From an uncultured virus (IMG/VR IMGVR_UViG_3300020195_000012) (Duplodnaviria; Heunggongvirae; Uroviricota; Caudoviricetes), in IMG/VR virus record IMGVR_UViG_3300020195_000012: a DNA stretch of 64,000 nt; one strand, written 5' to 3'. This document shows positions 1 to 60,146 of the stretch, in pieces. The position numbers were made by a program, and so were the translations under genes. The first letter of the stretch is position 1. Every line of letters starts with the position of its first letter. Below the pieces are notes generated by a model. The model searched no databases and was not told the DNA's origin. It was given only the letters and a program-made list of their open reading frames with translations.

Positions 1-122
1 AGTAGGAATTATTTTGCTTCGATCTTTAGTGCATCGCCTTCATCCCCTACCCTAAAGGGTTGCACCGCCCAAAGCGGCGGTGCAACATCTACCGATGTAG
101 GGGCTTTCGGCTCCGAAGACAG
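1..122 (-). mobile_element. Left end of an IS200/IS605-family element (second copy; continues off the window)
   Basis: About 105 nt nearly identical to 4604-4710; preceded on the minus strand by TTAC (123-126), as in the other copy. Confidence 0.8.
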
Positions 123-188
123 GTAAACGTCTAAGAGCATTAATTAAAGAAAGTATCAACAGGGAAATTATATAACAAGGAGGACACA

Positions 189-2373: not shown

Positions 2374-3237
2374 ATGAATCAAGATTTGTTGTTGAAGAAA
2401 AAACAAGATATAGTTCGTTCTCATCTCGCCAAGGAACTCACGAAAGATATTGAAGACACGTGGTGGAAAGCCGATCTAGCAATAGCTATCGAAAATCAAA
2501 TCTTGATAACTGAAGTTTCAAAAAATATGTCTTTGGAAGAAAAATCATCCACTATTGACATTGTCCACAAGTTTATGTTAAAGTCGATCTTTCCAAATAT
2601 CGTTAGCTGTCAATCTATGATGGGACCACAAGGATACGTATATTATGATGAATTCAAGTCCGAAGAAGTATTAGCTAAGACAAGACATGCCAAAACTACA
2701 TACAAACCAGATATAGAAACAACAAGTCAAAAAATCGCTGAAGAAATTGACATGGAAGTATTAACAGACATATCAAAAAATTCGGGTGTCAATTTTGTCT
2801 GTGATATGTCTGATAGTCGCCAATTGCGTGAAAATGCCACTAGATTGCTTTCAATCGTCAAAATGGCAAAACATACGGTCAAAGAGCGTTCGGGGCGTGG
2901 TGAGGCTAATTGGTGCGTTACGTCGCCTTTGACGGCAACACTGTTGTTCATGGACTCCCTGGAAGACTTCCACGCACTCAAACACAATACTGAAATTGGC
3001 ACTTTAGAAGAAATGCGGGTTTATTGCGTTCCCCAACTTGAACCGACAGACATTATTTTAGGATTCAAAGGACACCCATACGACTCAGGATATATTTATT
3101 GTCCATACGTTCCAATTTCATTTGCGGAAGGAATAACAGAAGAACCGGACTCACACAGAATGTTTTATAGATATGGAAAGAAATTAATAAAAGGTGGCTC
3201 TAATTATTACGCAAAAATTTCAGTAGTAAATATTTAA
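2374..3237 (+). CDS. Divergent major capsid protein (gp23) paralog
   Basis: IVSCQSMMGP, EEIDMEVLTD, GRGEANW..TSP, GFKG..YDSGYIYCPYVP, RYGKKL align with gp23 at 7908-9356; start taken at ATG 2374. Confidence 0.75.
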   Translation: MNQDLLLKKKQDIVRSHLAKELTKDIEDTWWKADLAIAIENQILITEVSKNMSLEEKSSTIDIVHKFMLKSIFPNIVSCQSMMGPQGYVYYDEFKSEEVLAKTRHAKTTYKPDIETTSQKIAEEIDMEVLTDISKNSGVNFVCDMSDSRQLRENATRLLSIVKMAKHTVKERSGRGEANWCVTSPLTATLLFMDSLEDFHALKHNTEIGTLEEMRVYCVPQLEPTDIILGFKGHPYDSGYIYCPYVPISFAEGITEEPDSHRMFYRYGKKLIKGGSNYYAKISVVNI

Positions 3238-3277
3238 GTCAGAACATTTCAAATAACTAAATTTAGAAAGATATAAA

Positions 3278-4282
3278 ATGGATAATTGCATGTTGGAAGA
3301 AGAATTGGCAGAACGAGCAAATGCAAAGAAAGCAATCGCAGAAAAGTGGAACAAATACAAGTTACTGGATCATCATTTTGCCGACGACCCATTCGCACAA
3401 ATGGACCTCGCTTTGATTCTTGAAAACCAAAGATTGTTCGATGAAACACATAATGATCATCAATTCAAACGAATTTCTATTCCTATTTGCATGAGGATTT
3501 TGAAAAGATTAATAATTAACAAAATTGCCAGCGTCCAACCATTGTTTGACAAAAAGGATGATTTGTTCTACTTGACCCACGAAGGAAATAAAACTTTCAT
3601 GGAGAAGCAAGAAGTTGAAGCAAAAGAATATAGACTCAAAACTGTCTGGAACTACGAAGTATCGCAAGACCTAAGAAGTCACAACGGACTTGATGCGGAA
3701 GCAGAATTAACAGCGATCTTGGCACAAGAAGTGACATTGGAATTAGATCGCAGATCACTTCTAACTATGTCTAAATTTGCAGGAACTAATTGGACGTGGG
3801 ATTTCGCCACGTCATTGGGTGATACAATCAAAGAAAAGTACGAAAGTTTGTATATGGAATTACATACTGTCTCTAAGCAAATTGAAGCAAAAACTGGTAG
3901 AGGGAAAGCAAATTGGATTGTTACTTCTCCTGAAATAGCCAGCATATTTGAAACTGTCTCATCTGGTTTTGCATATGTTGATAGTGATACATGGTCGGCA
4001 AGTCTTGGAATTTCTTACTGTGGAACTATTAATGGGAAGTGGAAACTTTATAAAGACCCATTATTCCAACCTAATAATATTCTGATGGGATACAAAGGCA
4101 ATCATCCTTATGATGCTGGATATATTTTCGGACCAAGAATCCTACTCAAACAAACTCCAATGTTTCTTGATCCAGACTCGTTCACGCCAAGAAAAGGTTT
4201 AATTACAGAATATTCTGACAAGATTATACCAGGAGGCGAAGACTTCTACGCTAATATCAAGGTGGCAAACTTTATCATTTGA
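3278..4282 (+). CDS. Major capsid protein (gp23) paralog lacking the central insertion
   Basis: LENQRL, QFKRISIP, QDLRS..LDAEAELTA.LAQE, LGDTIKEKYESLY, LDPDSFTPRKGLIT nearly identical to the main capsid protein. Confidence 0.85.
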   Translation: MDNCMLEEELAERANAKKAIAEKWNKYKLLDHHFADDPFAQMDLALILENQRLFDETHNDHQFKRISIPICMRILKRLIINKIASVQPLFDKKDDLFYLTHEGNKTFMEKQEVEAKEYRLKTVWNYEVSQDLRSHNGLDAEAELTAILAQEVTLELDRRSLLTMSKFAGTNWTWDFATSLGDTIKEKYESLYMELHTVSKQIEAKTGRGKANWIVTSPEIASIFETVSSGFAYVDSDTWSASLGISYCGTINGKWKLYKDPLFQPNNILMGYKGNHPYDAGYIFGPRILLKQTPMFLDPDSFTPRKGLITEYSDKIIPGGEDFYANIKVANFII

Positions 4283-4552: not shown

Positions 4553-4710
4553 TAATAGAGTCAGTTGTTAGTGTTTTATTCCACAAAAAGTAGTATTTGT
4601 TTTTGCTTCAATTTTTAGTGCATCGCCTTCATCCCCTACCCTAAAGGGTTGCACCGCCCAAAGCGGCGGTGCAACATCTACGATGTAGGGGCTTTCGGCT
4701 CCGAAGAATG
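4365..4710 (-). mobile_element. Non-autonomous IS200/IS605 (TnpB-type) miniature element
   Basis: Inserted 3' of TTAC with no target duplication; CCC..CTAAAG..GGG terminal hairpins; right end GAAGCCCCGACCCTTTAGGGTCGTGGGTAGTTCAC; no coding ORF. Confidence 0.85.
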
Positions 4711-4920
4711 GTAAACGAAATCATCTCCGCCGTATTGAACAACTGCCATGTTTTCATTCAATAGACTTGCCATCAAAGCAAGTCTATGTTTTATTTGTTC
4801 GTTCTCTAGTTTAATTTCAGTAATTCGTGGATCAACTGATGGAGTTGGTTTTGGTTTCAATGTAACGAAATAAATAGCCAATACAGCCATGATAAATACA
4901 ATGAACTTCATACAATTTCT

Positions 4921-6627: not shown

Positions 6628-7722
6628 TCAATCTAATGATTCGCAAAATTCTTTGGCTAACTGTTCAGAGCCATCAAATAATTCTATCTCTGTCCACGTC
6701 TCATATGTCATACCAAGTTTTATAGCAATGTTTTTTGCCGCCTCAATTTTTGCTAATACTGTTGGTTTATTAAGTCTCCATACTGGCTTTACTTCCACTA
6801 ATTTTTTGCTCCCATCCTTATACCAAACTAATAAATCTATTAGGTAATTTGAATCGTGGTCGTCATCTGGTTTTCTATACACAATTGGAAACGGTTCGTA
6901 ATCATATTTCAAAACAGTATCATCTTCATCTAGCATCAAAAACGCTTTCTTTTCATAAGAAGATCGATATGGAATATCATCTCCAGTTTTAGTTATATGC
7001 CTACCACGTCGATGATACGTTTGTGGCTCAAATCCATTCTGATATTGACGCACAACTGCTTGGCTGATTTTAGCTTTTGTTTCTGGAAGCAATCCACCTT
7101 GTTCTTTAAGCATTTCTTTCCGACCTTTGGAAATATTTTCACAATGCTCTTCAGTCTTTTTAATACCAAGATTTGATTTGGATTGTTTGTCTCGTACTTC
7201 TTGAGGAGTCTTCAGTCCGGAATTCCATCCTCCGCCAATGCCAGGAATCAAATTTTCTCTACTAATACAATCTGGATGCTCTTTCCAATATTTAGATATA
7301 TTGTCTCTGTGATCTTGAGTTAATTCACGTCCTGTAAGCGATTGGCTAATTTTATCTCGTTGTTCTTCAGAAATCTCCTTACCCTTTTGAGCGCAAGATT
7401 TACATACTTGTTCATATGGTTTTTCCATTTTGCCAAAATAACAATTTTGTTTCATCTCTCGACTAGATTTACATTCTGGACATATAACGTTTATAATTTC
7501 ATTCGTTTGTCGTTTCACTTCATTTTTTACAAACAATGGATTTTCGTGAGTCATAAAACATTCTCTACAAACAAATTGTCCTTTTTTCATAATGTTTCTT
7601 TTGGCAGAAACTTTCTTTATTGACTTATTTGGATTTTTGCATTCTGGATGGTCGCACTGAATTTCAATTATATCGATATCTTTATTGGCTTTGTATTTGA
7701 CAGTAAATTCTTCAATGTTCAT
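6628..7722 (-). CDS. Free-standing endonuclease: Zn fingers, NUMOD3 repeats and TnsA-like PD-(D/E)XK domain
   Basis: CxxC pairs; EEQRDKIS/EEHCENIS repeats; YRSSYE...YEPF.I.Y...Y.ID......LVEVKP. Confidence 0.75.
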   Translation of the reverse strand: MNIEEFTVKYKANKDIDIIEIQCDHPECKNPNKSIKKVSAKRNIMKKGQFVCRECFMTHENPLFVKNEVKRQTNEIINVICPECKSSREMKQNCYFGKMEKPYEQVCKSCAQKGKEISEEQRDKISQSLTGRELTQDHRDNISKYWKEHPDCISRENLIPGIGGGWNSGLKTPQEVRDKQSKSNLGIKKTEEHCENISKGRKEMLKEQGGLLPETKAKISQAVVRQYQNGFEPQTYHRRGRHITKTGDDIPYRSSYEKKAFLMLDEDDTVLKYDYEPFPIVYRKPDDDHDSNYLIDLLVWYKDGSKKLVEVKPVWRLNKPTVLAKIEAAKNIAIKLGMTYETWTEIELFDGSEQLAKEFCESLD

Positions 7723-7907: not shown

Positions 7908-9356
7908 TCAGATTACGAAGTTCGCAATCGACATGCGTCCGTAGAATTTAGCCCCTTCACGCAATAACTTTTTTCCATATCGCGTAATCAAACCCTTGCG
8001 AGGTGTGAACGAATCTGGATCGAGAACTGTTGGGGTCTGGGTCAAAGGTACGTATGGACAATAGAAATAACCTGAGTCCATGTAACTGTCGCCCTTGTAT
8101 CCGAGCAAAATTTGTCCTGTTGGGAACAGTGGGTCTTTATACAATCTCCACTTGCTATTAACAGTACCTACATACTGGATGCCTAGGCTACTTGTGAAAG
8201 TATCAGACATTGTTGGTGCGAAACCGGCTGTTGCCGTCTCAAAGATTGAAGCAACTTCTGGTGAACATACAATCCAGTTAGCACCACCACGCAAAGTCTT
8301 TCGGTGAATGACGTTGCTGATTTCAACCAACTTAACATAAAGACTTTCGTACTTTTCCTTGATGGTATCACCAAGGGCGGTATTGAAGTCCCATGCTGCA
8401 ATTGTGCCTGCATTGTTACGAAGGTCAGTTATAACTTCTCGGTCAATCTCAAGATTGATTTCCTGTGCTAGAACAGCGGTCAACTCGGCTTCTGCGTCGA
8501 GGTTGTGCTGTGAGCGGAGGTCTTGTTGTGCTTCGTACGTCCAGACGGCTTTCAACTTACGAGTGATTGCAACGATATCTTCTGACTCAACAACGAGGTT
8601 GATTTCAGGGAGATCGCCTTGTCCTTCCATGTTGTACTCATAATTGAACACAACGTTGTTTGTGCCTGGATCGGCTGACCATGTCAACTTGACCACACCT
8701 GTGACAAGGTTCATTGTTGCTCCACTGACTGTTGGTGCTGGTGCGCCTACGGCTGTGAAGGTGAATGTTCCTGTCTGTGATACAACGAAGGTGTAAATCA
8801 ATACGCCGCCGTCATATACTTGTCCCGTCATCGTTCCAGCAAGAACTGGTGTGTGTTCGAGTTGGTATTCTGTGAAGAAGCTACCGCCAGAGGCATATGC
8901 ACCTGCGTTCGTCTGGTTTTCGCCAGAGATGAACTGGTGTGTATACCAGATGTCGACGTTTCCGTCACCGGAAGCGAGTTGCTGCAACGACAGTGCATCA
9001 TCACCAGGGAATCCTGGTTGGGTTTGACCACGTGTGGCACCCTTGTTGCTGCTGTAGCGGAAGCGGAGATAATAAACTAGACCCGTTGGGCCGAGTAGTG
9101 GCTGAACGCTAACAATCTTGTTAGCAATTAGCTGTGGATAGATACGGCGGACAAGCGGTATAGAAATACGCTTGAACTGTGCGATATCGCCTGTGTCAGT
9201 GCTTTGCTCGTTAATCAAACGCTGGTTTTCGAGCAGAACGCTGGCGGTCTGGCGATCCCACTTAGTCTTAAGACCCTCAAGCAAACCCCACTTAGACCAA
9301 CGGCCTTCCAGCTTCGTTGCTTCGTTAAGGTACTTGCTATTCAATGTCATTTGCAT
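7908..9356 (-). CDS. gp23: T4-like major capsid protein gp23
   Basis: LLENQ, PLVRRIYP.LIA..IVSVQP..GPTG, RKLKA.WT.EAQQDL, YCPYVPL, TRYG; follows gp21-gp22. Confidence 0.95.
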   Translation of the reverse strand: MQMTLNSKYLNEATKLEGRWSKWGLLEGLKTKWDRQTASVLLENQRLINEQSTDTGDIAQFKRISIPLVRRIYPQLIANKIVSVQPLLGPTGLVYYLRFRYSSNKGATRGQTQPGFPGDDALSLQQLASGDGNVDIWYTHQFISGENQTNAGAYASGGSFFTEYQLEHTPVLAGTMTGQVYDGGVLIYTFVVSQTGTFTFTAVGAPAPTVSGATMNLVTGVVKLTWSADPGTNNVVFNYEYNMEGQGDLPEINLVVESEDIVAITRKLKAVWTYEAQQDLRSQHNLDAEAELTAVLAQEINLEIDREVITDLRNNAGTIAAWDFNTALGDTIKEKYESLYVKLVEISNVIHRKTLRGGANWIVCSPEVASIFETATAGFAPTMSDTFTSSLGIQYVGTVNSKWRLYKDPLFPTGQILLGYKGDSYMDSGYFYCPYVPLTQTPTVLDPDSFTPRKGLITRYGKKLLREGAKFYGRMSIANFVI

Positions 9357-13176: not shown

Positions 13177-13518
13177 ATGAGCAAAACATTTAAAGAGTTT
13201 GTATCTCACAAAGATGGAGTTATTCATCATCTTGGAGACGTTACAGAATTATTGCAGAGAATTGCAACCGAGCATGGAGCAAGGTTGAGACAACTTGTCC
13301 AATCAGCTATTTCTAGTGGAGAAATAGATGATGATAAAGAATTCAGGGATGATTTGCGAGAACTTAGCAAGGCATTATCTTCTAGTTCTTCGCAAGATCA
13401 ATTCCCGGTAAAAGAGCCACGTGGCAAGAGTGACCCAGACGTTGTCACACGCCCACGAGCAGATGGCGGTGGGGGTGGACCAATGGGTCAAGGTGGCGAA
13501 GGCGGCGGTGGAGATTAA
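13177..13518 (+). CDS. Putative internal head protein
   Basis: MSKTFKEFV N-terminus, Gly-rich tail, TATATA 4 nt upstream. Confidence 0.55.
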   Translation: MSKTFKEFVSHKDGVIHHLGDVTELLQRIATEHGARLRQLVQSAISSGEIDDDKEFRDDLRELSKALSSSSSQDQFPVKEPRGKSDPDVVTRPRADGGGGGPMGQGGEGGGGD

Positions 13519-16112
13519 GCATCGTCGAGTTCGCTCGCATCAATTTCTTCCTCGTCCTGTTCTTTACTATAATCCATTATTTCAAGATCGTATTTTTTGA
13601 TGTCTTCATGGTCTGGATCGGGCAGTCCTGATCCTTGAGACTTCTGTGGTTGACCATAAGTATCTGCGGCACTCTTGCTTCCATCACCCATCTTTTTCAT
13701 CATTGGTGGGGCTGCTGGTGGGGCTTCTCCTCCACCTTCTGGTGGTGGTAACGTGCCTGGTATTTCTCCACCTTCTCCACCTTCGGGTGGTGGAGCTTCT
13801 GGATTCATTCCACCCCCTTCCGCGCCTGCGCCCATATCTGGGGCTGGTTGAGCAGGCATTGCAATTCCAAGAAGTTGTGGATTTTGTGCCATTATCTGCA
13901 ACTTAAGTTGTTGTAGTTGTTGTATGGTACTACGAGATACAATCTCTTTTGCCTCATCAGGTGGAATCTTTAGAATTCTGGTCAGTACGTCAAAGTCAGA
14001 AAATAGTTGTGATCCCTTTATTGCCATTGCTCGATCAAATCTTGCTTGAGTTACATCATTTTCGCTCATCTCGCGATAAGGAGAAGGTGGTGTTAATTTA
14101 ATCTGAAGATCATCAAACAAATGATCTGGAAATCCTCTTAATGCTAAATGACGAACTGCTATTTCCATTAAACCATCAGCTAAACTTTGTTGAAGTCTTT
14201 CAACCAACCTAGCAAATTTAATGTCTACAGATGACAAGGTCACTCGTGTGATACTTGCATCCTCTTGAGCCATGTAGTTCTTTGGAAAATTCAACGCAAT
14301 AAACAATTTATTGCGGAAGTATAATGCATCATCGATTTCCCCGAGTGACTGTGCGCCTGGGAGAGTTTCGATACGAGTATTACTATTTGGACGTAGTGGA
14401 ATCCAAAAATCTTCATCAACAGAAGGAGCTGTCCAACGTTCTTCTACAGGAGATGCGCCTTGCGCTCCACCCTTAGCACTAAAAGTTTTACGTTTACGCA
14501 ACAAGTCTTTCATGCGTTCCATAAATCCTTCTGCTTTGAATGGTGGCAATTGTCCGACGTCGATGTAAAAAACACGCCTTTCGGGCGCTCTTGCCAGTCT
14601 ATACACAAGCATACTATCTTCCATTAGTTTTAGTTGATGTGCTGGTCCTCTTGCAGCATCGACTAATGAAATTCCATATGGATAATATTGTTGTCGTTCA
14701 TCTCCAATTCTAAAATGAATTATTTGTTCTGGAGTAAATCGTATAGCAGTTGCTTGTGCCAATTCTGCCACCGTTGCTTTAGTGACATCGATTTTAGCAA
14801 GACTTTGATAATCTGGACCTTCTCGGCTTTGCTGGAACTCAATCAATTTACCCTTGATTGTTTCAATTCTATAGACACTATCTGGTGGAAGATTTTGTAT
14901 CTTTAGAATACCCGATTTTGGTTCTTCTGTATCAATTACAAGTTCAACAAAGTGATCACCTTTTAGATACAAGTTTTTGGCTATATTCCATAATTTGCGA
15001 TCCATGTTTAGCATTTTAGGGCTAAAAAATAAGAATTCCAATTCTTCTTTAATGTCTCTATTTTTGCAGATGACATCGAATAAATGATTATGTTCACCAA
15101 TTTGACAATTGTGAAATATAGTTGTACTTGTAGCAAAATTTTCATGGTCTTTGACGGACAAGTCGTATACGTCTTGTTCTCCGTTTTCAACTATGTGTAA
15201 TACACGACGACGATCTTTGTATCTGGTTGTGAGGTTGCGAATTTCTGGTACAGAAAATCCGTGTACTTGAATGAAATCATCCAGAGAACCCCACGCCCGA
15301 TTTACTAACTTGGCTACTTGTCTTGTTGTTAACCCGGCAGACAATAATCTAATAACTTTAGCTAGTCTTTCTTGTTTTTCTGATTGCGCACCCATTCGCC
15401 ATTCATCAAGAAAGTTACGTTCTGTTTTCCACCCATCATTGAGTGTGAATATACGTGCAAATTGATTGATTTTTTGAGATGTCAAATGTGGTTCTGACTT
15501 GAGCCTGTAAAAAGGCATCAATTCATGTCCCTCTTTAATATTTTGAGCCTCAATCCATTTTCCATTTCTCAACAAAACTCTATGATCTTCCGTACAAGAA
15601 AAGTGTGTTCCATTATCAAGTATAAACTTTAAAGTTTTTGCTCGTTTCACTAATCTTGGGTTGAAAGCCCAACCGAGAGTGTAATCATTTTTTTCAAAAT
15701 CAAAACAATAAACCAAAAATTCTTCTGTTGAAGATTTGTCCTTAGTCAGTTGTTCGATAGTAAAAAATCCAAACGGAGTAGCAACTTCTGTATCGCCTGT
15801 AACGCAAGACTCATCAGCGAATACTGTAAGAGCGGTCTCAATTTCGGCTACGCTACGAAGACGATCATATTCTTTATATCGATTTTGTCTGTTGGTTACA
15901 GAGGATAAATCGATAAAATCACTACTGTCTCTTAATTGAACGACGCTACTGCCTTTACCTCCGGAAAGGTAGCCTCCATCTGATCTGAGATCAGGCATTG
16001 CTTCGGGAACGGCTACGCCTGCTCCTTCGATATTACGCGAACGCTCCCTTCGTCCGAGAGGATCGTCCGCTGTTGCCCACTTCCAGATTTTCAGTATGTC
16101 ATTCCAAGCCAT
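13515..16112 (-). CDS. gp20: Portal protein gp20 containing an intein
   Basis: LMEDSMLVYRLARAPERRVFYIDVG.LP..KAE, EDFWIP.R, IETLPG.Q.LG.IDD..YF. Confidence 0.95.
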   Translation of the reverse strand: MAWNDILKIWKWATADDPLGRRERSRNIEGAGVAVPEAMPDLRSDGGYLSGGKGSSVVQLRDSSDFIDLSSVTNRQNRYKEYDRLRSVAEIETALTVFADESCVTGDTEVATPFGFFTIEQLTKDKSSTEEFLVYCFDFEKNDYTLGWAFNPRLVKRAKTLKFILDNGTHFSCTEDHRVLLRNGKWIEAQNIKEGHELMPFYRLKSEPHLTSQKINQFARIFTLNDGWKTERNFLDEWRMGAQSEKQERLAKVIRLLSAGLTTRQVAKLVNRAWGSLDDFIQVHGFSVPEIRNLTTRYKDRRRVLHIVENGEQDVYDLSVKDHENFATSTTIFHNCQIGEHNHLFDVICKNRDIKEELEFLFFSPKMLNMDRKLWNIAKNLYLKGDHFVELVIDTEEPKSGILKIQNLPPDSVYRIETIKGKLIEFQQSREGPDYQSLAKIDVTKATVAELAQATAIRFTPEQIIHFRIGDERQQYYPYGISLVDAARGPAHQLKLMEDSMLVYRLARAPERRVFYIDVGQLPPFKAEGFMERMKDLLRKRKTFSAKGGAQGASPVEERWTAPSVDEDFWIPLRPNSNTRIETLPGAQSLGEIDDALYFRNKLFIALNFPKNYMAQEDASITRVTLSSVDIKFARLVERLQQSLADGLMEIAVRHLALRGFPDHLFDDLQIKLTPPSPYREMSENDVTQARFDRAMAIKGSQLFSDFDVLTRILKIPPDEAKEIVSRSTIQQLQQLKLQIMAQNPQLLGIAMPAQPAPDMGAGAEGGGMNPEAPPPEGGEGGEIPGTLPPPEGGGEAPPAAPPMMKKMGDGSKSAADTYGQPQKSQGSGLPDPDHEDIKKYDLEIMDYSKEQDEEEIDASELDDA
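15108..15806 (-). mobile_element. Intein (233 aa) in the portal gene
   Basis: Starts CVTGDTEV; block B CTEDH; ends DVYDLSV..HENF...IFHN followed by Cys. Confidence 0.9.
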
Positions 16113-32447: not shown

Positions 32448-33040
32448 GACTGGCTATCATGCAGCCATACTTCTTCCCATATTACGGCTATTTTGACCTT
32501 ATCAGTAAAGTAGATTTGTTTCTGTTTCTCACAGACGTTCAATACATTCGTCGTGGCTGGATAAACAGAAACAGAATAAGATCAGGGCAATACATTACCG
32601 TTCCAATATCACATTGCCATCAATCAACTAAAATAAAAGATATTAGAATTGCTGGAGAGTGGAAATCCAAAGTATTATCTTCATTAAGATCAACGTACAA
32701 AAAGGCAACTCTACATACCTTATACAAACTCATAGAACGGCAGACTGGTAGTAATTTATCTTCTGTGCTGCAACAAACAATAATTGAAACCGCATCTTTT
32801 CTAGGTATCAATACTAAGTTCGAGGAAGCAGAACCAACACCAGGACGTGGCAAAGAACTTATTAGTAATCTGTGTAGAAAGTATGGAGCAACAACTTACG
32901 TCAATCTACCAGGAGGACGAGAATTATATAATAAGTTTGATATTGATATTGAATTTGTTGATACCGTTCCAGACTATTCAATCCTTGACTTCTGTCTTAG
33001 GGATACCGTCCCATCGCCCACCAGTGCGCAACATGACTAA
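32444..33040 (+). CDS. WbqC-like protein
   Basis: QPYFFPY.GYF, DVQY...GWINRNRI, YVN..GG..LY. Confidence 0.85.
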   Translation: MRLAIMQPYFFPYYGYFDLISKVDLFLFLTDVQYIRRGWINRNRIRSGQYITVPISHCHQSTKIKDIRIAGEWKSKVLSSLRSTYKKATLHTLYKLIERQTGSNLSSVLQQTIIETASFLGINTKFEEAEPTPGRGKELISNLCRKYGATTYVNLPGGRELYNKFDIDIEFVDTVPDYSILDFCLRDTVPSPTSAQHD

Positions 33041-33610
33041 AAAGTAAGAATGATTTTTACGTGCGTGAACTTGACGTTTTCTTGGATGCGGTCTTTTATT
33101 GGATTGAACTAATACAAAAATGTCTTCGCAACGAAAACCAATTGTTGAAGCATGGGTAATAAGATCACAATGAACCAATACTTGTCTATTTGCGCACACC
33201 ATATCTTGGCATTTTATTATCATCACACCAGAAGAATTCAATACTCGATTGGCTTCGTTCATTCCTTTTATGTAAATATCAAGAACTGCATCTGCCCATT
33301 TTTTATCAGTAAAAGTGCGTTCAATGCCATAGTAATCAGAGAATTGTGATATGCCTGTGTATTGAGTAGGCATGTAAGGTGGGTCCATAACCAATGCATC
33401 AAATGATCCTGCTTCATAAGGCAAAGCAGTCATGTCAACACCAGTTTTCAAATCTGTTGGCGTGAATTCATATTTAGACGTATCAACATTTCTCCAAAAC
33501 ACACCTTTGCCATAATTAACATCCGTTATCTTGCTTCCTGGTTTGACATAAATGTCTAGTATGCCAGGAAAAAGGTCTGCGTTAGTTCCGACGCTTGCTG
33601 TATAAATCAC
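32978..33610 (-). CDS. SAM-dependent amino (DNA) methyltransferase
   Basis: D.NYG.G.F motif I, DPPY, IKCQD, HARKNHSY. Confidence 0.75.
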   Translation of the reverse strand: MIYTASVGTNADLFPGILDIYVKPGSKITDVNYGKGVFWRNVDTSKYEFTPTDLKTGVDMTALPYEAGSFDALVMDPPYMPTQYTGISQFSDYYGIERTFTDKKWADAVLDIYIKGMNEANRVLNSSGVMIIKCQDMVCANRQVLVHCDLITHASTIGFRCEDIFVLVQSNKRPHPRKRQVHARKNHSYFLVMLRTGGRWDGIPKTEVKD

Positions 33611-33780
33611 GATTTTTTGCCTACCGTTCTAATTAAAGTAAATTTAGTTTGAATAATCAACCATCTCACTTTCACCGTGAGACTTTCAATGGATTGATTA
33701 CTACTGGCCTTGCGGCAAGGCTCCTATCCCCTATTCCTGCGAACTCAGAGATTACTTTTCGTCCTATGTTGAGAGAACCA
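33607..33780 (-). ncRNA. Predicted tnpB omegaRNA with guide GGTAGGCAAAAAATCGTGA (33625-33607); boundaries inferred
   Basis: Overlaps the tnpB 3' end; scaffold end inferred at TTAGAAC from the duplicated gene tail. Confidence 0.45.
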
Positions 33781-34847
33781 TTAACGTCAGCATTCACAGC
33801 AAATCCATCCTTCGTAACGTACAAACCACGTTTCTTTCTCTTTCCAGAAAATTCAGGTACAGGCTCTCCGTACTTGGGTAATGGATCATTATCATAAAAA
33901 CTGGCTTTACTTGTGTACGCTTCTTCCGTGAATGTTACATCAATTCCTGCAATATCTGCTTTGTACTTGATTTTTTGCAAAAGTAAATATATTGGCACAC
34001 AGCAAAATGCTTGGTTTGTCTTTTTGCCTAAATTGATATTTTGTTTCCATCCATTATTTTTGCCAATAACAATATGACCAATACCTTCCTTTACACATAA
34101 GTCAATAATGAATTTACTTACATGATGGAAATAGTTTTCAAGCCTCCAATACCTTTTACGCAAACGATTCTTGCAAGGACGTTTATTGTACCATTGATTG
34201 ATGGACTTGACGATGCGACCATTGATCAGTATCGGACGGTTCTGATCGTAAGTTATCGCACACAAATTATTTAATCCAATATCAATCGTACAAATCTTGT
34301 TTTTGTTAAACTTTATCTTTTCACTGTTTTCTTTCTTTTCGTATTGGACGTCAATTACGAATCCAAACGCTTTTGGCGTAATGACAACTTGTTTGTATCC
34401 TTCTTTGAATGGAACAGAAAAACAATCGTTGTTCGCAGTGAGTGTGGTTAATGGTTTTTTGCCTTGTCCTCTTTTAATTGTGTGTTTGGAAAAAATTACT
34501 TGAGCCATTTTATTTTTGTAATTAGGCGGTTTTGGACATTTGATGAACTTACTTGAGTCTTTCTTGTAAGCAGTTAATGCTTTCAAAAAATTACTCCAAT
34601 CTATAAGACATTTTCGTATTGTTTGTGTAGCAGTTTTAGTATTGCCAAATTGCTGAAAACAATCAAGTAGTCTTGTTTCTTTCACAAGTATACTAATGTT
34701 AGGAATTTGTCGATATTTTACGTGTTGTTGATTGAACCATGCTTGACGCATCAAATAATTACATCGATTGTATAATTCTTTGCTCAGAGAGCAAAGACGA
34801 GTGATTTCAGCATTGCCATTTGTGTAGTGTCGTTCGGATAATATCAT
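33672..34847 (-). CDS. tnpB: TnpB RNA-guided endonuclease (IS200/IS605 family), no tnpA in the window
   Basis: LYN..NY, IDIGLNNL (RuvC-I), IVIG.N.GWKQ, EEAYTSK, NADVNGSLNI (RuvC-III). Confidence 0.92.
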   Translation of the reverse strand: MILSERHYTNGNAEITRLCSLSKELYNRCNYLMRQAWFNQQHVKYRQIPNISILVKETRLLDCFQQFGNTKTATQTIRKCLIDWSNFLKALTAYKKDSSKFIKCPKPPNYKNKMAQVIFSKHTIKRGQGKKPLTTLTANNDCFSVPFKEGYKQVVITPKAFGFVIDVQYEKKENSEKIKFNKNKICTIDIGLNNLCAITYDQNRPILINGRIVKSINQWYNKRPCKNRLRKRYWRLENYFHHVSKFIIDLCVKEGIGHIVIGKNNGWKQNINLGKKTNQAFCCVPIYLLLQKIKYKADIAGIDVTFTEEAYTSKASFYDNDPLPKYGEPVPEFSGKRKKRGLYVTKDGFAVNADVNGSLNIGRKVISEFAGIGDRSLAARPVVINPLKVSR

Positions 34848-34849
34848 TT

Positions 34850-35725
34850 TCAATGGTTTTTGCCTAGTCTAAATTTGCGATGACCTTGGACATCTTGAAA
34901 TTTGCGAATCAATTCATATGTTGGTCGATTATATTCACGTTCTACATCTTCATTGTCTTCAACTGGTTCTCCAAGAACTCGTTCTAAGAACTTAAGCCAT
35001 TGACGACCGCGCCAACCTGCGTATTCACTCCACTTCATTGAATGTAGTGCTTGAAGAACTATTTGATTGAATTTATAACTACCTTCCATAACCCAGTGTG
35101 CAAGATCAGTATATTGTATCATATCTTGAAGCATGTTTACAACAGCATGTTCTACGTCATCCATTGATGCCGTTGTAAACCTTCTTTTTGGCTGATTTGC
35201 TTCGGGCGAAATACTAGGTATTTTACCTTTATTAACCTTGGCAATGAACTGCTTCATTGGTGTTTCTGGAGGGATAGAATTTGACAAATCGAAATTACTG
35301 ACTGGGTAAATCACGCCAGTGATGTATTTTGCAGGTATTGGAACAGGTGAAAATGCTTGAAGTCTAGTAGTTGCATCAAATGTTTCTTTGTCATCTGGGT
35401 CAACTTGCAATATTGAAAATGGAACTTCAGCAACAAACATAAGATGATCACCGCCATGTTTAGTTACGGCAGCATGACTATACATATTCGTTCTGCCTGG
35501 ATCAAAAGAGAAAAAGACCCCAGGAGTTACCTTGCTCCAGTTCATCCGTGATTTATCGAATGTGAATCCGTTATTGACAATCTCCCAAAACCATTTTGTA
35601 CTTGTCCCGTGATAAACTAACGCTTTTTTCTTACGTCCAACTATTGATTTTTGAAAATCTGGATCAAATGGGTTATCAACCACACTCATATCCATCGCCA
35701 TCTCTAACCATTTCCTGAACTCCAT
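34850..35725 (-). CDS. ADP-ribosyltransferase-fold protein, putative internal head protein
   Basis: MEFRKWLE; VYHGTS....I...G, PGVFFS, IP..YI. Confidence 0.6.
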   Translation of the reverse strand: MEFRKWLEMAMDMSVVDNPFDPDFQKSIVGRKKKALVYHGTSTKWFWEIVNNGFTFDKSRMNWSKVTPGVFFSFDPGRTNMYSHAAVTKHGGDHLMFVAEVPFSILQVDPDDKETFDATTRLQAFSPVPIPAKYITGVIYPVSNFDLSNSIPPETPMKQFIAKVNKGKIPSISPEANQPKRRFTTASMDDVEHAVVNMLQDMIQYTDLAHWVMEGSYKFNQIVLQALHSMKWSEYAGWRGRQWLKFLERVLGEPVEDNEDVEREYNRPTYELIRKFQDVQGHRKFRLGKNH

Positions 35726-37391: not shown

Positions 37392-37702
37392 TCGTTGTCC
37401 TCAATAGCAAACCAACTCAAACGACAATCGTTATGAACTTGAACTTTGAATTGGAACCCACCAGGAACAACCACCGCTTCACTAATGTAACAAACCTCAC
37501 CCATATTTTCATTGTATGGATGAACGTGAGGTATAATAGAGAACCACACTCTCAAAACATTTAATTCTGTTTCTATGAACATAGTACTGTCATTATCAAC
37601 CATTGAAATATCTAATGTTCCATATTGATAATGGCTTGCACCAAAAAAATCACGAACTAATTTAACTATACGAGCAACAAAATTATTGGTTATTCCTGGC
37701 AT
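37388..37702 (-). CDS. Hypothetical protein
   Basis: Coupled ORF in an operon. Confidence 0.5.
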   Translation of the reverse strand: MPGITNNFVARIVKLVRDFFGASHYQYGTLDISMVDNDSTMFIETELNVLRVWFSIIPHVHPYNENMGEVCYISEAVVVPGGFQFKVQVHNDCRLSWFAIEDNE

Positions 37703-38348
37703 CGTTCACTCCCTTGATTATTGATTCTATCGCCTTGATCGGATCAGCGGATTCACTAATCGGTCTTCCGACCACAAATAGATCACCACCACCCCCATCA
37801 CCGACTCGCTTTTGATCGTCGCCTTCTACATTCTTCACACGAATGCCGGGGACTACCTTTATAAAGTTTAAATGCTTCAATAAATTCACTTCACGAGACG
37901 AACAAACGATCCCATGCGTTCCCGCTTCATACGCAAGATGAGCCAAATCCCACACCGTTTCCTCAACAGGACGATGGTAAATCTCATGAACCTCTGCTTC
38001 GTCCATACTCGTCAAAGCAGTTACCGCAAGTATCTTGGATTCACCGCAATTCTCTACTGCTGCCTTCATCATCCTTTTTCCGCCACTAGCATGAACCGTA
38101 ATCAAGTCAGCACCAGCATGAGCCAAACGCCTCACACTATTCCCAACTGTCTTTGGTATGTCAAACAATTTAGGATCAGCAAAAACTTTACCCAAACATT
38201 TCAACTCTGTGATAATTTCTATGCCGCATGAAAGCAAAAGATCATTGACTTTGAATCCCCAAACAGTTGAAGATAGAGTCCAGGCAAGCATCAGTGCTTC
38301 TTCACGGTCCATTCCGTCCAAGGCTACGATAATCTGATTGGATTGCAT
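37683..38348 (-). CDS. pyrF: Orotidine-5'-phosphate decarboxylase
   Basis: IIVALD, D.KL.DIP.TV, TVHASGG, VT.LTS, PGIR, DDQKR, VVGRPI. Confidence 0.92.
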   Translation of the reverse strand: MQSNQIIVALDGMDREEALMLAWTLSSTVWGFKVNDLLLSCGIEIITELKCLGKVFADPKLFDIPKTVGNSVRRLAHAGADLITVHASGGKRMMKAAVENCGESKILAVTALTSMDEAEVHEIYHRPVEETVWDLAHLAYEAGTHGIVCSSREVNLLKHLNFIKVVPGIRVKNVEGDDQKRVGDGGGGDLFVVGRPISESADPIKAIESIIKGVNDARNNQ

Positions 38349-38405
38349 TGCTGCCTCTCTTGGGTTATACTCTGTAGTTATCCAGAACGAATTGGGAATT
38401 GATAA

Positions 38406-39506
38406 ATGATCCCACCTAATATAGCCATGTTGCCACACCAACTGCGAGAAATTGCAGCTCAACTCTCACGTTCAGTCAAATCTAACTCCGATAATTGGTT
38501 CCAAGAGCGCGGCATAGACATTCACAACAAAGATATGTTTTGGATTCTCGACCAGAAAACCCAAGCCAACAAAAATCCCTGGAACTCAATTTGTAACGGT
38601 CTAGTATACACGAAAGAACAATTTTTGATATCAGTTCCTCCAACAAAATTCTACAACTTCTCAGACCAAAACGCCGTCATCAACCTTCACGACAGCGATT
38701 TACTACAAAAAGTCGACGGCGAAATGTTCGTTGCCATATTCCCTTGGAGTAATCACGAACACCCCTGCATCCACACCAGAACTAAAATCAGCTACGTCAC
38801 AGGCGATATGGGCGAAGGTACACCCTTGTACGCAGGTCGCAAAGCCATTCGTGAACGTACATATAAAAAATCAGATACAGACTACGGCTACACATTCCAA
38901 TACGACGGAAGAGATTTATTCCTCGTTGCCGGAAGACATATCGGTTCTCTCTTTGAACACTCAGAAGAAGAACTTGACTCAATAGCGAAACGATTAGGTT
39001 GCATGCGACCACTTCGCTATCCATGTCAAAAAGGATGGCTGACCGTGGAAAGGATTCTCAAAGAATTTGATGAGTCTTTCTTTGTTCGTGATCGCAACAC
39101 AGGTGATCGTGCCCACGTCATGCTCCCAATCGCGATTAAACGCCCCAAGTTGCTCATATCTGGTAAGTACAAGTATTTACTACCTTATTGGCTCAATGGC
39201 GAATACAAGTCACTCCTAAACTCTTATCCACTGTTCAGAGAACGATACGCAGTGGTTGACGACACTTTGTTAAAGATTAAAACCCGAATGAAAAAAGCAG
39301 CAGAGCATTGGTGCCGTTCCCTCTCCGCTCCAAACAAGGCAGCAATTGCTGCTGCCTTGAACGAATCACAAGAACCTTATTGGGCAAAACGAATCATTTT
39401 GAGGTTAGTTGACATTCATCAAGAGCGATGGGATGAATCAATCACAGAATACTTCCGCAGATTGACACCAAAAGCACTTATCGAAATAATGGGACTTATT
39501 GATTAG
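38406..39506 (+). CDS. RNA ligase (Rnl1-like), divergent
   Basis: CNGL, P..KFYN, KVDG nucleotidyltransferase motif I. Confidence 0.55.
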   Translation: MIPPNIAMLPHQLREIAAQLSRSVKSNSDNWFQERGIDIHNKDMFWILDQKTQANKNPWNSICNGLVYTKEQFLISVPPTKFYNFSDQNAVINLHDSDLLQKVDGEMFVAIFPWSNHEHPCIHTRTKISYVTGDMGEGTPLYAGRKAIRERTYKKSDTDYGYTFQYDGRDLFLVAGRHIGSLFEHSEEELDSIAKRLGCMRPLRYPCQKGWLTVERILKEFDESFFVRDRNTGDRAHVMLPIAIKRPKLLISGKYKYLLPYWLNGEYKSLLNSYPLFRERYAVVDDTLLKIKTRMKKAAEHWCRSLSAPNKAAIAAALNESQEPYWAKRIILRLVDIHQERWDESITEYFRRLTPKALIEIMGLID

Positions 39507-52869: not shown

Positions 52870-53418
52870 ATGTCAGATGACGATGATTTCTTTATTGATG
52901 ATGTTCTCGGAGATTTGAGCAAAAAAAGAACCAAGAAAAAGGTCAACAGTAAAGACAAAGGTCAACGTGGAGAACGCGGTCTGTGCGAAGTCCTTTCAGC
53001 ACGATTCCCTGATCGTAAAGGGTGGGCGAGAGTGGTTGGTTCTGGTAATGCCTGGGCACATGGCGAAATGACCGAACAAGCCAAGCAAGTCCTCACTTCA
53101 GATATCGTCTGTCCCGAAGGATTCAAGTTCTCCATTGAATGCAAATTCGGCTACAAAGATTATGACCTGTCTGCTGCTTTTGATAAACGTCTCAAGGGGT
53201 TAGATGAATTTCTTGAACAATCTGAGAAGGATGCCGCGAGAGTCAATAAAAAATCGTGGCTCTGTTGGAAGAAGCCACGACAAGGTTGGTTAGTATTTCT
53301 CAAAGATGATCCGATTGGTCCATTCAAGGTTAAACTTTATTACCATGACTGGGTCGGTGTTTCTCTTGCCGAATTACTAGCCGTTAAATCAGACGACTAC
53401 TTCTTTACGACCTTCTAG
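52870..53418 (+). CDS. Holliday junction resolvase-like PD-(D/E)XK nuclease
   Basis: NSK.KG.RGER, R..GSG, D....IECK, Q...DA. Confidence 0.75.
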   Translation: MSDDDDFFIDDVLGDLSKKRTKKKVNSKDKGQRGERGLCEVLSARFPDRKGWARVVGSGNAWAHGEMTEQAKQVLTSDIVCPEGFKFSIECKFGYKDYDLSAAFDKRLKGLDEFLEQSEKDAARVNKKSWLCWKKPRQGWLVFLKDDPIGPFKVKLYYHDWVGVSLAELLAVKSDDYFFTTF

Positions 53419-53874: not shown

Positions 53875-54279
53875 TCATCCAACCAACAAAGATCGATATG
53901 CATGATCTACAGTTTTTGCTTCCAATCTCTTAACAACTTCACTCAATTTCATCTTATAGGGTTTATTATGCGTAGAACACATCACGTTGCCAAAGTGATA
54001 GACAAAGTAGTGTCCGTGCTTCTTTCCCTCTGAATGCAGCCAGACGCCACTGTAGACGATATAAAGCCCATTCTCTGACAACTCCGTAAACTTGTACTCT
54101 TTCTTGTAATAAGAAAGAATGTCACAAATGTCATTAAAGTAGATTCCGCTCTTCTCCGGAGAGAAGAAACGGAACTCTTTTATCCACGTTTCGTAGTCTT
54201 CAGTTACGGTTGCGGCGTAGTGTGCGCACCTATAACCACAATCACGTGTGTTATCTGGCTGATTGAAAGGAAAATTCAT
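53875..54279 (-). CDS. Papain-fold (C39-like) peptidase
   Basis: Q.....DCG..C and GHYFV. Confidence 0.55.
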   Translation of the reverse strand: MNFPFNQPDNTRDCGYRCAHYAATVTEDYETWIKEFRFFSPEKSGIYFNDICDILSYYKKEYKFTELSENGLYIVYSGVWLHSEGKKHGHYFVYHFGNVMCSTHNKPYKMKLSEVVKRLEAKTVDHAYRSLLVG

Positions 54280-54842
54280 TTTGCTCGTCCTGCATATTCA
54301 CATTTGACAGTATCGACAAGAACACTTTCACCTTGAACCACGAAAGACGGAATCGCAATTTGCAGTCCCGTCTCTAACGTCGCTTGCTTGTATTGTGCAG
54401 CCGCCGTCGCACCCTTGATGCTTGGCTCCGTCTCTGTAACCTTGAGCGTCACCGTGGGAGGTGGAACGGCTTGAAGTGCATTGCCTTCGTAGAACGTAAC
54501 CTGAACCTCGTCATTCTCTTTGATAAACAACATCAGATCGTCCACAACTTCAAGAGAGAATGACATTTGGTCATAGGTTTCCATGTCCATAAACACATAA
54601 TCTGCGCCGTCACGGTACAGATATGACATGGTGCGAGTTTCCAAATAAGCAATTTCTGCTTTGTCTTCTGGATGAACTCTGATTTCGTTAACATACCCTG
54701 TTTTCAGATTTTTAACTGTTAACGAAAGTTTGGACGGCAAATTACCAGGAGTTCGAAGGTCACGCTCAATAACTTGAAGTAATTTGCCTCCGTCATCAAT
54801 GACGTGACCTTTACGAACATCAACAAACAACATACGACTCAT
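54276..54842 (-). CDS. efp: Translation elongation factor P
   Basis: TPGN loop, KNL.TG, YLY.DG..Y.FMD.ETY.Q, TEP..KG.T, A.LETG. Confidence 0.92.
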   Translation of the reverse strand: MSRMLFVDVRKGHVIDDGGKLLQVIERDLRTPGNLPSKLSLTVKNLKTGYVNEIRVHPEDKAEIAYLETRTMSYLYRDGADYVFMDMETYDQMSFSLEVVDDLMLFIKENDEVQVTFYEGNALQAVPPPTVTLKVTETEPSIKGATAAAQYKQATLETGLQIAIPSFVVQGESVLVDTVKCEYAGRAK

Positions 54843-58059: not shown

Positions 58060-58494
58060 CTACAAACTCATGTGCGATCCACGTTCGAGAGGTTCATCCT
58101 CGTCAGGCTTGGGCTGACTGTCTGTAGGTTTGTCTTCATTTCCTAAAGAGTTGATCGGAACTTGGAGTTTGTCCAACATACCTTCCATCTCCGAAACTGA
58201 AGAGGCTACAACTTCTTGAAGGTCGTCATTCTCATCAATCGCCTTCATTAAAGCAACACCAATTTTTTGTAGGCTTTTAAGGTGTTGGACATCTTCATCA
58301 TCCCAGCGTCCATGCAAAATACGTCGTATCTGATTGACAATGCCTGTTGATGCGCGGATCAGGGCGCGATTGCCCATACTGGCTGCATCTTCGTGTAAAT
58401 TCTGAAGGGCAGTTAAAATGTCTCCTGCCCTTTGTCCAAGATATTGTTTCGACTCATTAAGAAGAAAATATCTAAATTGCTCCATTTTATTCAT
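58060..58494 (-). CDS. Hypothetical, putative internal head protein
   Basis: EQFRYFLLNE N-terminus. Confidence 0.5.
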   Translation of the reverse strand: MNKMEQFRYFLLNESKQYLGQRAGDILTALQNLHEDAASMGNRALIRASTGIVNQIRRILHGRWDDEDVQHLKSLQKIGVALMKAIDENDDLQEVVASSVSEMEGMLDKLQVPINSLGNEDKPTDSQPKPDEDEPLERGSHMSL

Positions 58495-60146
58495 ACAGTA
58501 TTTACGGTCTTAGCTAAAGTTTCTTGATGCTGAACAATTGCTGCTGCAACCAATCCACGAAATAATGGCGCAGCATTAGTCAAACGACTCTTGAATTCAG
58601 GATGTGCTTGCGTCCCAATGAAATAAGGATGAATGGTTTTCTCCATTTCCATTATTTCAATTAAACCCGTTTCTGGGTTTTGCCCGCTTACTATGAATCC
58701 CTTTTTTGCATATCTTTCAACAAAATCAGGATTTACTTCATATCGATGTCTGTGTCGTTCACTAATCAATTTATTTCCATACACTTCTGCCGCAATGGTG
58801 TCCTTGGCTAATTCACAATCGTATGCTCCCAATCGCATAGTTGCTGATTTAGTCTTGAGTCCTTCCTGACCTTCTACAAAATGGATGACTGGATGAGGAG
58901 TCTCTTGATTGAATTCCAGACTGTTCGCTCCTTCTAACCCACAGATATTACGTGCAAATTCAATTACTGCCATTTGCAATCCAAGACATATTCCCAGAAA
59001 TGGAATCTTTTTCTCTCTGACATATTGAATGGCTTTAATTTTGCCTTCTGTGCCTCTTTTATCAAATCCACCTGGAACAATGACTCCGTCCAATCCATCA
59101 AAATACTTATGAAGTCCACGATAATCTTTATATTTTTCTAATTCTTCCGCCTTAATCCATTTGATTTTAACTTTTATATCGTTGGCAATACCAGCATGAA
59201 TCAACGCCTCTTTCAAAGAAATATAAGCTTCTTCTCCGTCATACTTGCCAAAAATACCAATCTCGACTTGAGAAAATTGGTTGTTTGTATATTTCTCTAC
59301 CACTTCACGGTATTTTGAAATATTACATCTAGAACGATTCAGACGAAACAAATCAACAAACAAATCATCAACTTGTCGTTCATAAAACTGCAAAGGCACT
59401 TGATAAATTGTCGACACGTCAGCAGCTTCAAAAATATGCTGACGTGTAACGTTGGTTAGCATCGATACTTTGTCTAGTATCTTCTCAGGAATTGGTTTTT
59501 CTGTCCTGCAAAAAATAACATCTGGTTGTAATCCATGTCTCTGAAGTTCCTTTACAGCATTCTGTAAAGGCTTAGTCTTAAATTCTTTAATTGTATTGAC
59601 CCAAAGAACTGGCGCAACCATTACAATCAAAATTTCATCCTTGTGCTTGCCTTCATCCCGCCATTTGAACTGACGCATCGCTTCGAAAAAAGCAAAACTT
59701 TCACTGTCCCCAACCGTGCCACCAATCTCAGCAATGACAATGTCGTGCGTCTTTCCCAAATCCAACAATCGTTGTTGGATTCTGTCTGTAAGGTGCGGCG
59801 TAATTTGGACCGTCTGACCAAGATATTTACCTTGTTCTTGCTCCTCAATAAGCTCTTTGTAAAGAGTTCCAGACGTAACAATATTTGCCTTGCCAACAGT
59901 AATACCCATTATTCTTTCGGCATGACCTAAATCTAAATCTGTTTCTGTCCCGTCAGAACACAAAAAACATTCGCCATGCTCACGCGGGGACAAAATCCCC
60001 GCGTTGACTGAAAGATAAGGATCGAATTTTATATACGTGACATCATGCCCACGAAGTCGCAACAAAAGCCCAATGCTGGCAGCAGATACTCCTTTACCCG
60101 AAGAACTGTAGCACCCTCCCACAATCGTGATATACTTAGCCATCAT
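58491..60146 (-). CDS. pyrG: CTP synthase
   Basis: SS.GKG, ETDLDLGH, EIGGTVGD.E, KTKP.Q, GICLG.Q, RHRHRYE, HPEF. Confidence 0.97.
   Translation of the reverse strand: MMAKYITIVGGCYSSSGKGVSAASIGLLLRLRGHDVTYIKFDPYLSVNAGILSPREHGECFLCSDGTETDLDLGHAERIMGITVGKANIVTSGTLYKELIEEQEQGKYLGQTVQITPHLTDRIQQRLLDLGKTHDIVIAEIGGTVGDSESFAFFEAMRQFKWRDEGKHKDEILIVMVAPVLWVNTIKEFKTKPLQNAVKELQRHGLQPDVIFCRTEKPIPEKILDKVSMLTNVTRQHIFEAADVSTIYQVPLQFYERQVDDLFVDLFRLNRSRCNISKYREVVEKYTNNQFSQVEIGIFGKYDGEEAYISLKEALIHAGIANDIKVKIKWIKAEELEKYKDYRGLHKYFDGLDGVIVPGGFDKRGTEGKIKAIQYVREKKIPFLGICLGLQMAVIEFARNICGLEGANSLEFNQETPHPVIHFVEGQEGLKTKSATMRLGAYDCELAKDTIAAEVYGNKLISERHRHRYEVNPDFVERYAKKGFIVSGQNPETGLIEIMEMEKTIHPYFIGTQAHPEFKSRLTNAAPLFRGLVAAAIVQHQETLAKTVNTV

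Follow-up and report, generated by a model that had tools for sequence, protein, structure and literature searches.

How does a transposon-derived nuclease gene come to lie between two intact phage genes with no transposase and no room for a transposon end, and what does it do there? The question is raised by a tnpB gene in an uncultured virus (IMG/VR record IMGVR_UViG_3300020195_000012), of which a stretch of 64,000 nucleotides, here called the window, was analyzed; this 64-kb stretch has 40% GC and comes from a metagenome, as a contig of a T4-like myovirus. The answer preferred here, to which we give about an even chance on the evidence of the sequence, is a tnpA-less IS200/IS605-type tnpB–omegaRNA unit that has wholly lost its left end and become fixed between a PARP/ART-like gene (ART) and a DNA methyltransferase gene, its guide being a relic of the junction between the two. 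A preliminary description of the locus had proposed an RNA-guided homing endonuclease carrying a recoded copy of the tail of its target gene. Its layout is broadly right; its details of element boundary, transposon-adjacent motif (TAM) and 'recoding' are wrong.

Anatomy of the locus

The three genes, and every feature of the locus described below, lie on the minus strand. The upstream gene (34850–35725) is an open reading frame (ORF) of 291 residues with a Pfam match to the PARP catalytic domain (E 4e-6), ends in FRLGKNH* and aligns with its homologues up to their last residues and stop. Its coding sequence runs to 2 nt before tnpB: as the preliminary description stated, the ART stop TGA (34852–34850) is followed at that spacing by the tnpB ATG at 34847. 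The tnpB ORF (33672–34847) is intact and encodes 391 residues. A gap of 61 nt separates it from the GTG start, at 33610, of an N6/N4 DNA methyltransferase gene (32978–33610; Pfam N6_N4_Mtase). The start is consistent with homologue N-termini, 13 of which align within 0–7 residues, and within 0–2 for relatives P0127 and P0134.

The TnpB protein and its family

The tnpB product matches PF01385 (OrfB_IS605, E 4.7e-8) and PF07282 (Cas12f1-like TNB, E 1.2e-8), both above the curated cut-offs. There are 3383 homologues at E ≤ 0.001, and the best 120 of these are 63–100% identical; apart from the window's own protein, which is the 100% entry, the nearest of those listed reach 79%. Besides the window's own record, viral contigs of IMG/VR harbor 31 further loci, with up to 81% identity over the best matched segment. 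The best match in one-per-species bacterial genomes is 60% identical, and the best matches in cultured phages are 31–38% identical.

An alignment of 31 TnpB sequences has as invariant residues D189 (TIDIGLN), Gly262 (IIIGKN), E308/E309 (FTEE[SA]YTS) and D354 (NADVNGSLN). The two aspartates are assigned to RuvC-I and RuvC-III, respectively, Gly262 is predicted to occupy the canonical site of the RuvC-II glutamate, and the invariant glutamate pair, 46–47 residues after this glycine, provides the candidates for an alternative catalytic glutamate. In a profile search of solved structures, Gly262 aligns with the glutamate of the Cas12f motif 'iqmErl'. The preliminary description was right about both the glycine and an alternative glutamate, but this copy is not peculiar in having them: the glycine is invariant in 31 of 31 sequences, and such proteins are published. 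Large TnpB clades in which the RuvC-II glutamate is replaced by glycine and compensated by another glutamate are described by Altae-Tran et al. 2023 (PMC10691335). The window's family resembles the rearranged RuvC-II clades of that text (RIIr-5) in having glycine at the canonical site and the invariant later glutamate pair. It differs in lacking the CxxC zinc finger throughout the 31-sequence alignment, and its membership of the named clade is putative.

Guide RNA scaffold and predicted guide

Downstream of the tnpB stop, all aligned loci have a common scaffold that consists of a hairpin, a long-range helix, a terminal hairpin and the invariant end GAACGGT. The first hairpin has the form GAGC-N-TTGCCGCAA-N-GC, with a middle pair that covaries (CG in 8, GC in 7, and AU in 6 sequences), and RNAalifold predicts 24 pairs for 21 sequences, 12 of them with compensatory changes. 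The window holds every part of this scaffold, which overlaps the 3' end of tnpB (33623–33764, the start being approximate; alignments of 21 and 22 loci and RNAalifold); the predicted guide-RNA scaffold is intact and covarying. Rfam has no family match in the locus, in the window, or in L014, a metagenome contig described in the last section.

Similarity between the loci stops exactly at GAACGGT, beyond which neither the 21 nor the 22 aligned loci share anything. The motif is part of the element in 21 of 21 loci (22 in the second alignment), and the border between element and flank in the preliminary description was placed 3 nt too early, with the GGT of this conserved end counted as flank. As the scaffold ends at 33623, the guide should start at 33622 and be templated from there downwards (AGGCAAAAAATCGTGATTTA...; AGGC...), across the GTG start of the methyltransferase. 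Guides of published TnpB systems are about 16–20 nt long; with such a length assumed, the predicted guide template spans 33603–33622. Taken as a whole, the locus is predicted to be an intact TnpB–omegaRNA unit of a known kind.

Loss of the left end

A conserved left end is present in 16 of 24 related loci examined. It starts with GGGT(T), 91–124 nt (mostly about 115) before the ATG, and comprises a hairpin and, immediately upstream of the start, a TATATAA-like box. None of this is found in the window, where ART coding sequence takes its place; among 22 loci compared, the window is the sole case without any left end. A search of the 76 window ORFs with Pfam detects no Y1 transposase and no member of the resolvase/serine family, and none of the 16 relatives has room for tnpA between its left end and tnpB. 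The absence of an insertion sequence (IS) left end at tnpB and of tnpA from the window, both claimed earlier, is confirmed by these comparisons. The transposase-free state is ordinary for this tnpB family; the total lack of a left end is not. Without a left end, the window copy is therefore not movable by TnpA.

A scan for sigma-70-type promoters and terminators returned 11 promoter-like sites where 11.6 are expected, with no excess and no separate promoter signal for tnpB. The T4 late-promoter word gives four matches against 3.2 expected, none of them in the locus. Lacking a promoter-bearing left end and placed 2 nt behind the ART stop, tnpB is probably expressed together with ART.

The left junctions of the relatives also bear on the TAM. 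GGGT is found in 15 of the 16 left ends and is directly preceded by A in 12, which makes the family motif at this junction (A)GGGT(T) and leaves no support for a TAM of about TTTAG, as had been proposed. A survey of homologous tnpB loci, suggested in the preliminary description, found a gene tail in place of the left end in 0 of 21 other aligned loci, so the arrangement in the window reflects an individual history and no design of the family.

A probable duplicated gene tail at both junctions

The 10-mer TAGGCAAAAA occurs three times in the 64 kb, against 0.2 expected, and each of the three sites falls within this locus, on the minus strand. The first is in the ART tail (34866–34857). The second is inside tnpB (34030–34021), where native TnpB coding sequence encodes the conserved motif NLGKKT. 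The third lies at the border of scaffold and guide (33623–33614); its first T is the last base of GAACGGT, and 9 nt are truly flank. Around the two outer sites, the similarity extends to a pair of gene tails. The upstream, functional copy (TAGGCAAAAACCATTGA, 34850–34866) closes with the ART stop codon. The putative relic copy (AGGCAAAAAATCGTGA, 33622–33607) lies in the predicted guide template, encodes GKKS* in the frame of its own TGA and, as described earlier, overlaps the GTG of the methyltransferase, here as a GTGA stop/start overlap.

The two copies are identical at 13 of 17 positions without gaps, and in both the TGA ends 7 nt past the 10-mer. The preliminary description was correct about the repeat and its common stop register but counted 13 of 19 and took as flank the GGT that belongs to the scaffold. 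The claim that the copies are altered at two TAM-proximal bases fails: the differences fall at guide positions 10–13 and among the bases that lie 5' of the repeat. In the 16 relatives with a left end, the longest common substring (LCS) of the flanks is only 3–7. An ordinary target-site duplication was considered as the origin of the repeat and rejected for the family, as 0 of 16 relatives have any.

An LCS of at least 10 is reached by 33 of 19887 random pairs of 40-mers. At up to 4 mismatches, the 17-mer has five other sites in 128 kb, the ART tail among them; at fewer than 4, the window has no site besides the guide template. When the position of the repeat at both junctions and the common stop register are counted in, a real duplication of the gene tail appears moderately probable. 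The configuration is unusual as read from the sequence, apparently immobilized and gene-sparing, and the duplicated gene tail would be a feature particular to this locus. The literature searched yielded no account of a phage tnpB with a duplicated tail of a host gene at its flanks, which is no proof that none is in print.

Which copy is ancestral

The nearest ART homologues end in YRLGRQPPKRQ (60% identity) and YRLGKKP (52% identity). For two methyltransferase homologues (74% and 67% identity), the longest contigs have sizes of 9138 and 12261, the same as those of the contigs of these two ART homologues, and cluster members of both the ART and the methyltransferase homologues have a common contig size of 15451. 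None of the best 120 of 3383 TnpB homologues is on a contig of size 9138, 12261 or 15451. In relatives at 52–74% protein identity, ART and methyltransferase seem to lie on one contig that has no close TnpB.

In its JGI copy, the 67% methyltransferase begins with a written V, which corresponds to a GTG start. The downstream copy in the window reads ..AAA AAA TCG TGA over GTG ATT (xGKKS*), the arrangement of a GKKP*-type tail whose last codon ends in G and overlaps a GTG start. Because the homologue tail RLGKKP* and the GTG-start methyltransferase fit the GTGA overlap, the comparison suggests that the downstream copy is the likelier ancestral tail and the upstream copy (GKNH*) a replacement. The earlier claim that the guide is the ancestral gene tail agrees with these tails, with the GTG start and with the equal contig sizes, but the adjacency of the two genes in the relatives is indirect.

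Proposed history and mechanism

In the preferred reading, a canonical element would have inserted into the junction between the ART stop and the methyltransferase start. Later recombination, by a route that is speculative, would have swapped the left end for a tail whose source was a diverged allele or duplicate, which would restore ART and put tnpB under the expression signals of ART. The diverged upstream copy would close the ART reading frame, both neighboring genes would stay whole, and the guide template would be left as a relic of the ancestral stop/start junction.

Such a guide may also have a use. If the relic junction copy is the guide, the nuclease would, in a homing reading, cut only genomes with the undivided ancestral junction. 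The TnpB–omegaRNA complex would then cleave related phages in which this junction stands next to a TAM, after which repair from the present genome would install tnpB there (homing); alternatively, cutting would do no more than exclude the rival. The unit would persist and spread solely through the cutting of genomes with an undivided junction. The upstream copy would be safe from its own nuclease through mismatches at guide positions 10–13 and through the lack of the family left-junction motif. We place the probability of a homing or exclusion function at or slightly under one half, and it stays hypothetical because no empty (tnpB-less) allele was found. A narrower version, in which this T4-like phage would have the tnpB cassette as a free-standing homing endonuclease gene, guided by RNA and lodged within a duplicated stop/start junction whose diverged copy is immune, is unlikely.

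Evidence against the preferred reading

Several observations weigh against the fixed, junction-relic unit favored here. The repeat is short, and the 10-mer alone is weak evidence, at a chance frequency of about 0.2–0.6%. Under the null judged fairer, an LCS of at least 10 is found in 17 of 2701 pairs of gene-upstream 43-mers, and the local-alignment score of the flanks is attained by 73 of 4954 random pairs of 66-mers. The TAGGCAAAAA copy in native tnpB coding sequence indicates that such words recur in this composition, and tnpB contains a further, equally good chance look-alike of the ART tail (34465–34449), encoding GKKPL. The adjacency of ART and methyltransferase in the relatives is inferred from equal contig sizes alone, not from DNA.

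The empty allele has been sought in several collections. Megablast of 5.5 kb against phages gave no match, and tblastn of the ART protein against phages gave none. Scans of viral and metagenome contigs with ART, the methyltransferase and alignments returned only the window's own IMG/VR record and distant or non-syntenic relatives, namely non-syntenic homologues of about 42% and methyltransferases of at most 56% with no ART or TnpB nearby. The exact 26-mer of the methyltransferase start was found, among viral contigs, in the window's own record only. One record (G001) is 100% identical to the window, as it is the same sequence, and offers no independent comparison. Seven sequencing runs contain the stretch, four of them being possible sources of it; among the assembled contigs of four runs, none joins across tnpB. 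Run X6, at about 6x depth, has no identical cover at 34338–34671 and 34839–35506 and one contig that ends at 33608, gaps that are not evidence.

For the empty allele, two joins can be drawn. In the reconstruction proposed earlier (FRVGKKS*), the upstream ...AG is joined to the scaffold-end GGT, so that AGGGT, the family motif, would reappear immediately 5' of the match to the guide. This speaks slightly for that join: three of the five bases come from the element end, and the sole independent coincidence is AG, about 1 in 16. This tail has valine where both ART homologues have leucine. An alternative join after ..GACT retains the leucine, with a tail that departs from GKKP by a single residue, but lacks the family motif. 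The use of (A)GGGT(T) as TAM is itself a guess from 16 left junctions. Ambiguity of boundaries and TAM is also seen in L021, another viral contig (2800–2890, 4220–4300), where a member of the tnpB family lies inside a tRNA-Leu-like gene: ARAGORN rebuilds the tRNA only if 9 bases of the element's two ends are kept between the flanks, and the loop lacks U33. An intact copy of this tRNA-like insertion site was not found.

Competing explanations

The first competing explanation, an unlikely one, is a stranded neutral remnant: a solo tnpB inserted, its left end was deleted, the likeness of the flanks arose by chance in an A-rich genome rich in Lys codons, and the nuclease is idle both for the phage and for its own spread. 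The chance frequencies above fit this account, as do the two further tail look-alikes inside tnpB and the absence of an empty allele from phage, viral and run-contig searches; the close TnpB clade, moreover, is huge and consists mostly of ordinary elements with both ends. A mere remnant is harder to reconcile with an ORF, catalytic residues and scaffold that are all intact, or with a repeat placed exactly at both junctions, where the stop codon keeps one register. In its GTGA overlap, the downstream copy resembles a homologue tail, and the exact 2-nt packing behind the ART stop would be unusual for a random deletion. If the preferred reading is not true, the locus is one more stranded IS remnant.

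The design set out in the preliminary description is improbable in its full form. It holds that a recoded tail, purpose-built and carried by the element itself, forms the left border, with a TAM of about TTTAG, two protective TAM-proximal changes and the empty allele FRVGKKS*. In its favor, the motif created by its join lies directly 5' of the guide match, and the tail duplication on which it builds is probably real. Against it stand the left-junction motif of the family, the GGT that ends the scaffold in all 21 aligned loci, the position of the copy differences within the guide, the leucine of the homologues and the absence of any gene tail as left border in the 21 aligned family loci. Domestication for a non-homing phage function is very improbable; examples would be an effect on host DNA or the use of the RNA guide to control the methyltransferase start. 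It is suggested by a guide that spans the methyltransferase start codon and by a tnpB packed into the ART transcription unit with no promoter excess. Against it, the guide of any IS necessarily matches the 3' flank of that IS, the catalytic residues are conserved, unlike those of nuclease-dead TnpB-like repressors, and the window has no second target.

Relation to known systems

IS200/IS605-family tnpB elements of the ISDra2/IS608 type were reportedly described with a right-end omegaRNA by Karvelis in 2021. The locus resembles solo tnpB elements of this type in its TnpB with RuvC D/E/D residues, in a scaffold over the 3' end of the gene, in a guide templated by the 3' flank and in the absence of tnpA, which is missing from most of their copies. 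It differs in that the left end is entirely absent, which precludes movement by TnpA, that tnpB is packed 2 nt behind a phage gene, and that the 3' flank resembles a duplicate of the tail of that gene. Homing of IS200/IS605-family tnpB elements was reportedly shown by Meers et al. (bioRxiv 10.1101/2023.03.14.532601).

A second parallel is provided by the free-standing homing endonucleases of T-even phages (Seg, Mob), the intronless homing of which is summarized in PMC13565253. In both cases, a nuclease gene lies between two conserved phage genes, and tnpB would be expected to cut the allele that lacks it during co-infection and to be copied by repair. The target here would be recognized by an RNA guide and a TAM instead of by protein. 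The same text presents TnpB-dependent homing into homologous replicons as a concept, discusses 'non-restorative homing' as possible for phages and, in a passage citing PMC11870625, states that TnpB-driven, TnpA-independent spread of IS605 has been reported for plasmids. Transposon non-restorative homing and the plasmid spread of IS605 are alike, as outlined there, in requiring only TnpB, a guide and homology on both sides. The window's replicon, unlike those plasmids, is a phage of lytic type, and its element is unable to transpose at all.

If the preferred reading is true, a transposon RNA-guided nuclease can abandon transposition and persist as a phage homing or exclusion gene, with its neighbor genes undamaged. 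T-even homing endonucleases would be linked with the TnpB/Cas12 lineage, and the locus would offer a concrete route from transposon nucleases to phage homing genes as well as a natural, compact triplet of nuclease, guide and target that is open to direct test.

Other mobile elements and features of the window

The ART gene is also the site of a different insertion. Metagenome contig L014 matches window positions 36796–35562 at 99.9% identity over 1235 bp; within the ART gene, its sequence then departs from the window and passes into a different IS (L014:1225–2294), with a structured left end, a small ribbon-helix-helix (RHH) ORF and the N-terminus of a tnpB (HTH_OrfB_IS605, E 2.7e-15). The RHH_1 match of the small ORF, at 19.2 bits, is under the cut-off of 20.5; RHH (Arc) proteins of IS605 elements have recently been reported as repressors (bioRxiv 10.64898/2026.09.24.754181). 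The site at which this near-identical phage variant holds its tnpB element maps to 35560–35570 of the ART gene, and runs X5 and X6 also show the junction, through loose ends at 35565. The insertion point reads TTTAC in L014 and TTCAC in the window, a synonymous Phe-codon difference that could affect a target motif. In another ART homologue (P0004), the N-terminal half is kept and is followed by unrelated sequence labelled DNA polymerase III delta'-type by Pfam; this may be another disrupted or chimeric allele.

Two direct repeats of 118 bp in the window (12–129 and 4601–4717) share 96% identity with each other and resemble, at about 73%, the left end of the L014 element. Both are preceded by TTTACC, and their middle hairpin differs from that of L014 through compensating changes. 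With no match in Rfam, these repeats may be solo ends or miniature derivatives of the L014 IS.

The structural genes of the window encode gp23-type capsid proteins, a gp20 portal with an intein, a prohead protease, gp18 sheath, gp19 tube and baseplate proteins. Selfish-nuclease genes are abundant in the phage: an intein splicing domain lies within the portal gene (13515–16112), and other nuclease genes encode an HNH endonuclease (1319–1939), a protein with a TnsA-like endonuclease domain (6628–7722) and a PDDEXK endonuclease (52870–53418). There are three ORFs of the gp23 family (2374–4282 and 7908–9356). In the two shorter ones, of 287 and 334 residues, the Pfam match is confined to the C-terminal half of the model, and both have 76% DNA stretches in common with the full-length gene, in inverted orientation. 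Nucleotide-metabolism genes are also encoded, and homologues of elongation factor P, CTP synthase and orotidine-5'-phosphate decarboxylase are found at 54276–54842, 58491–60146 and 37683–38462, respectively.

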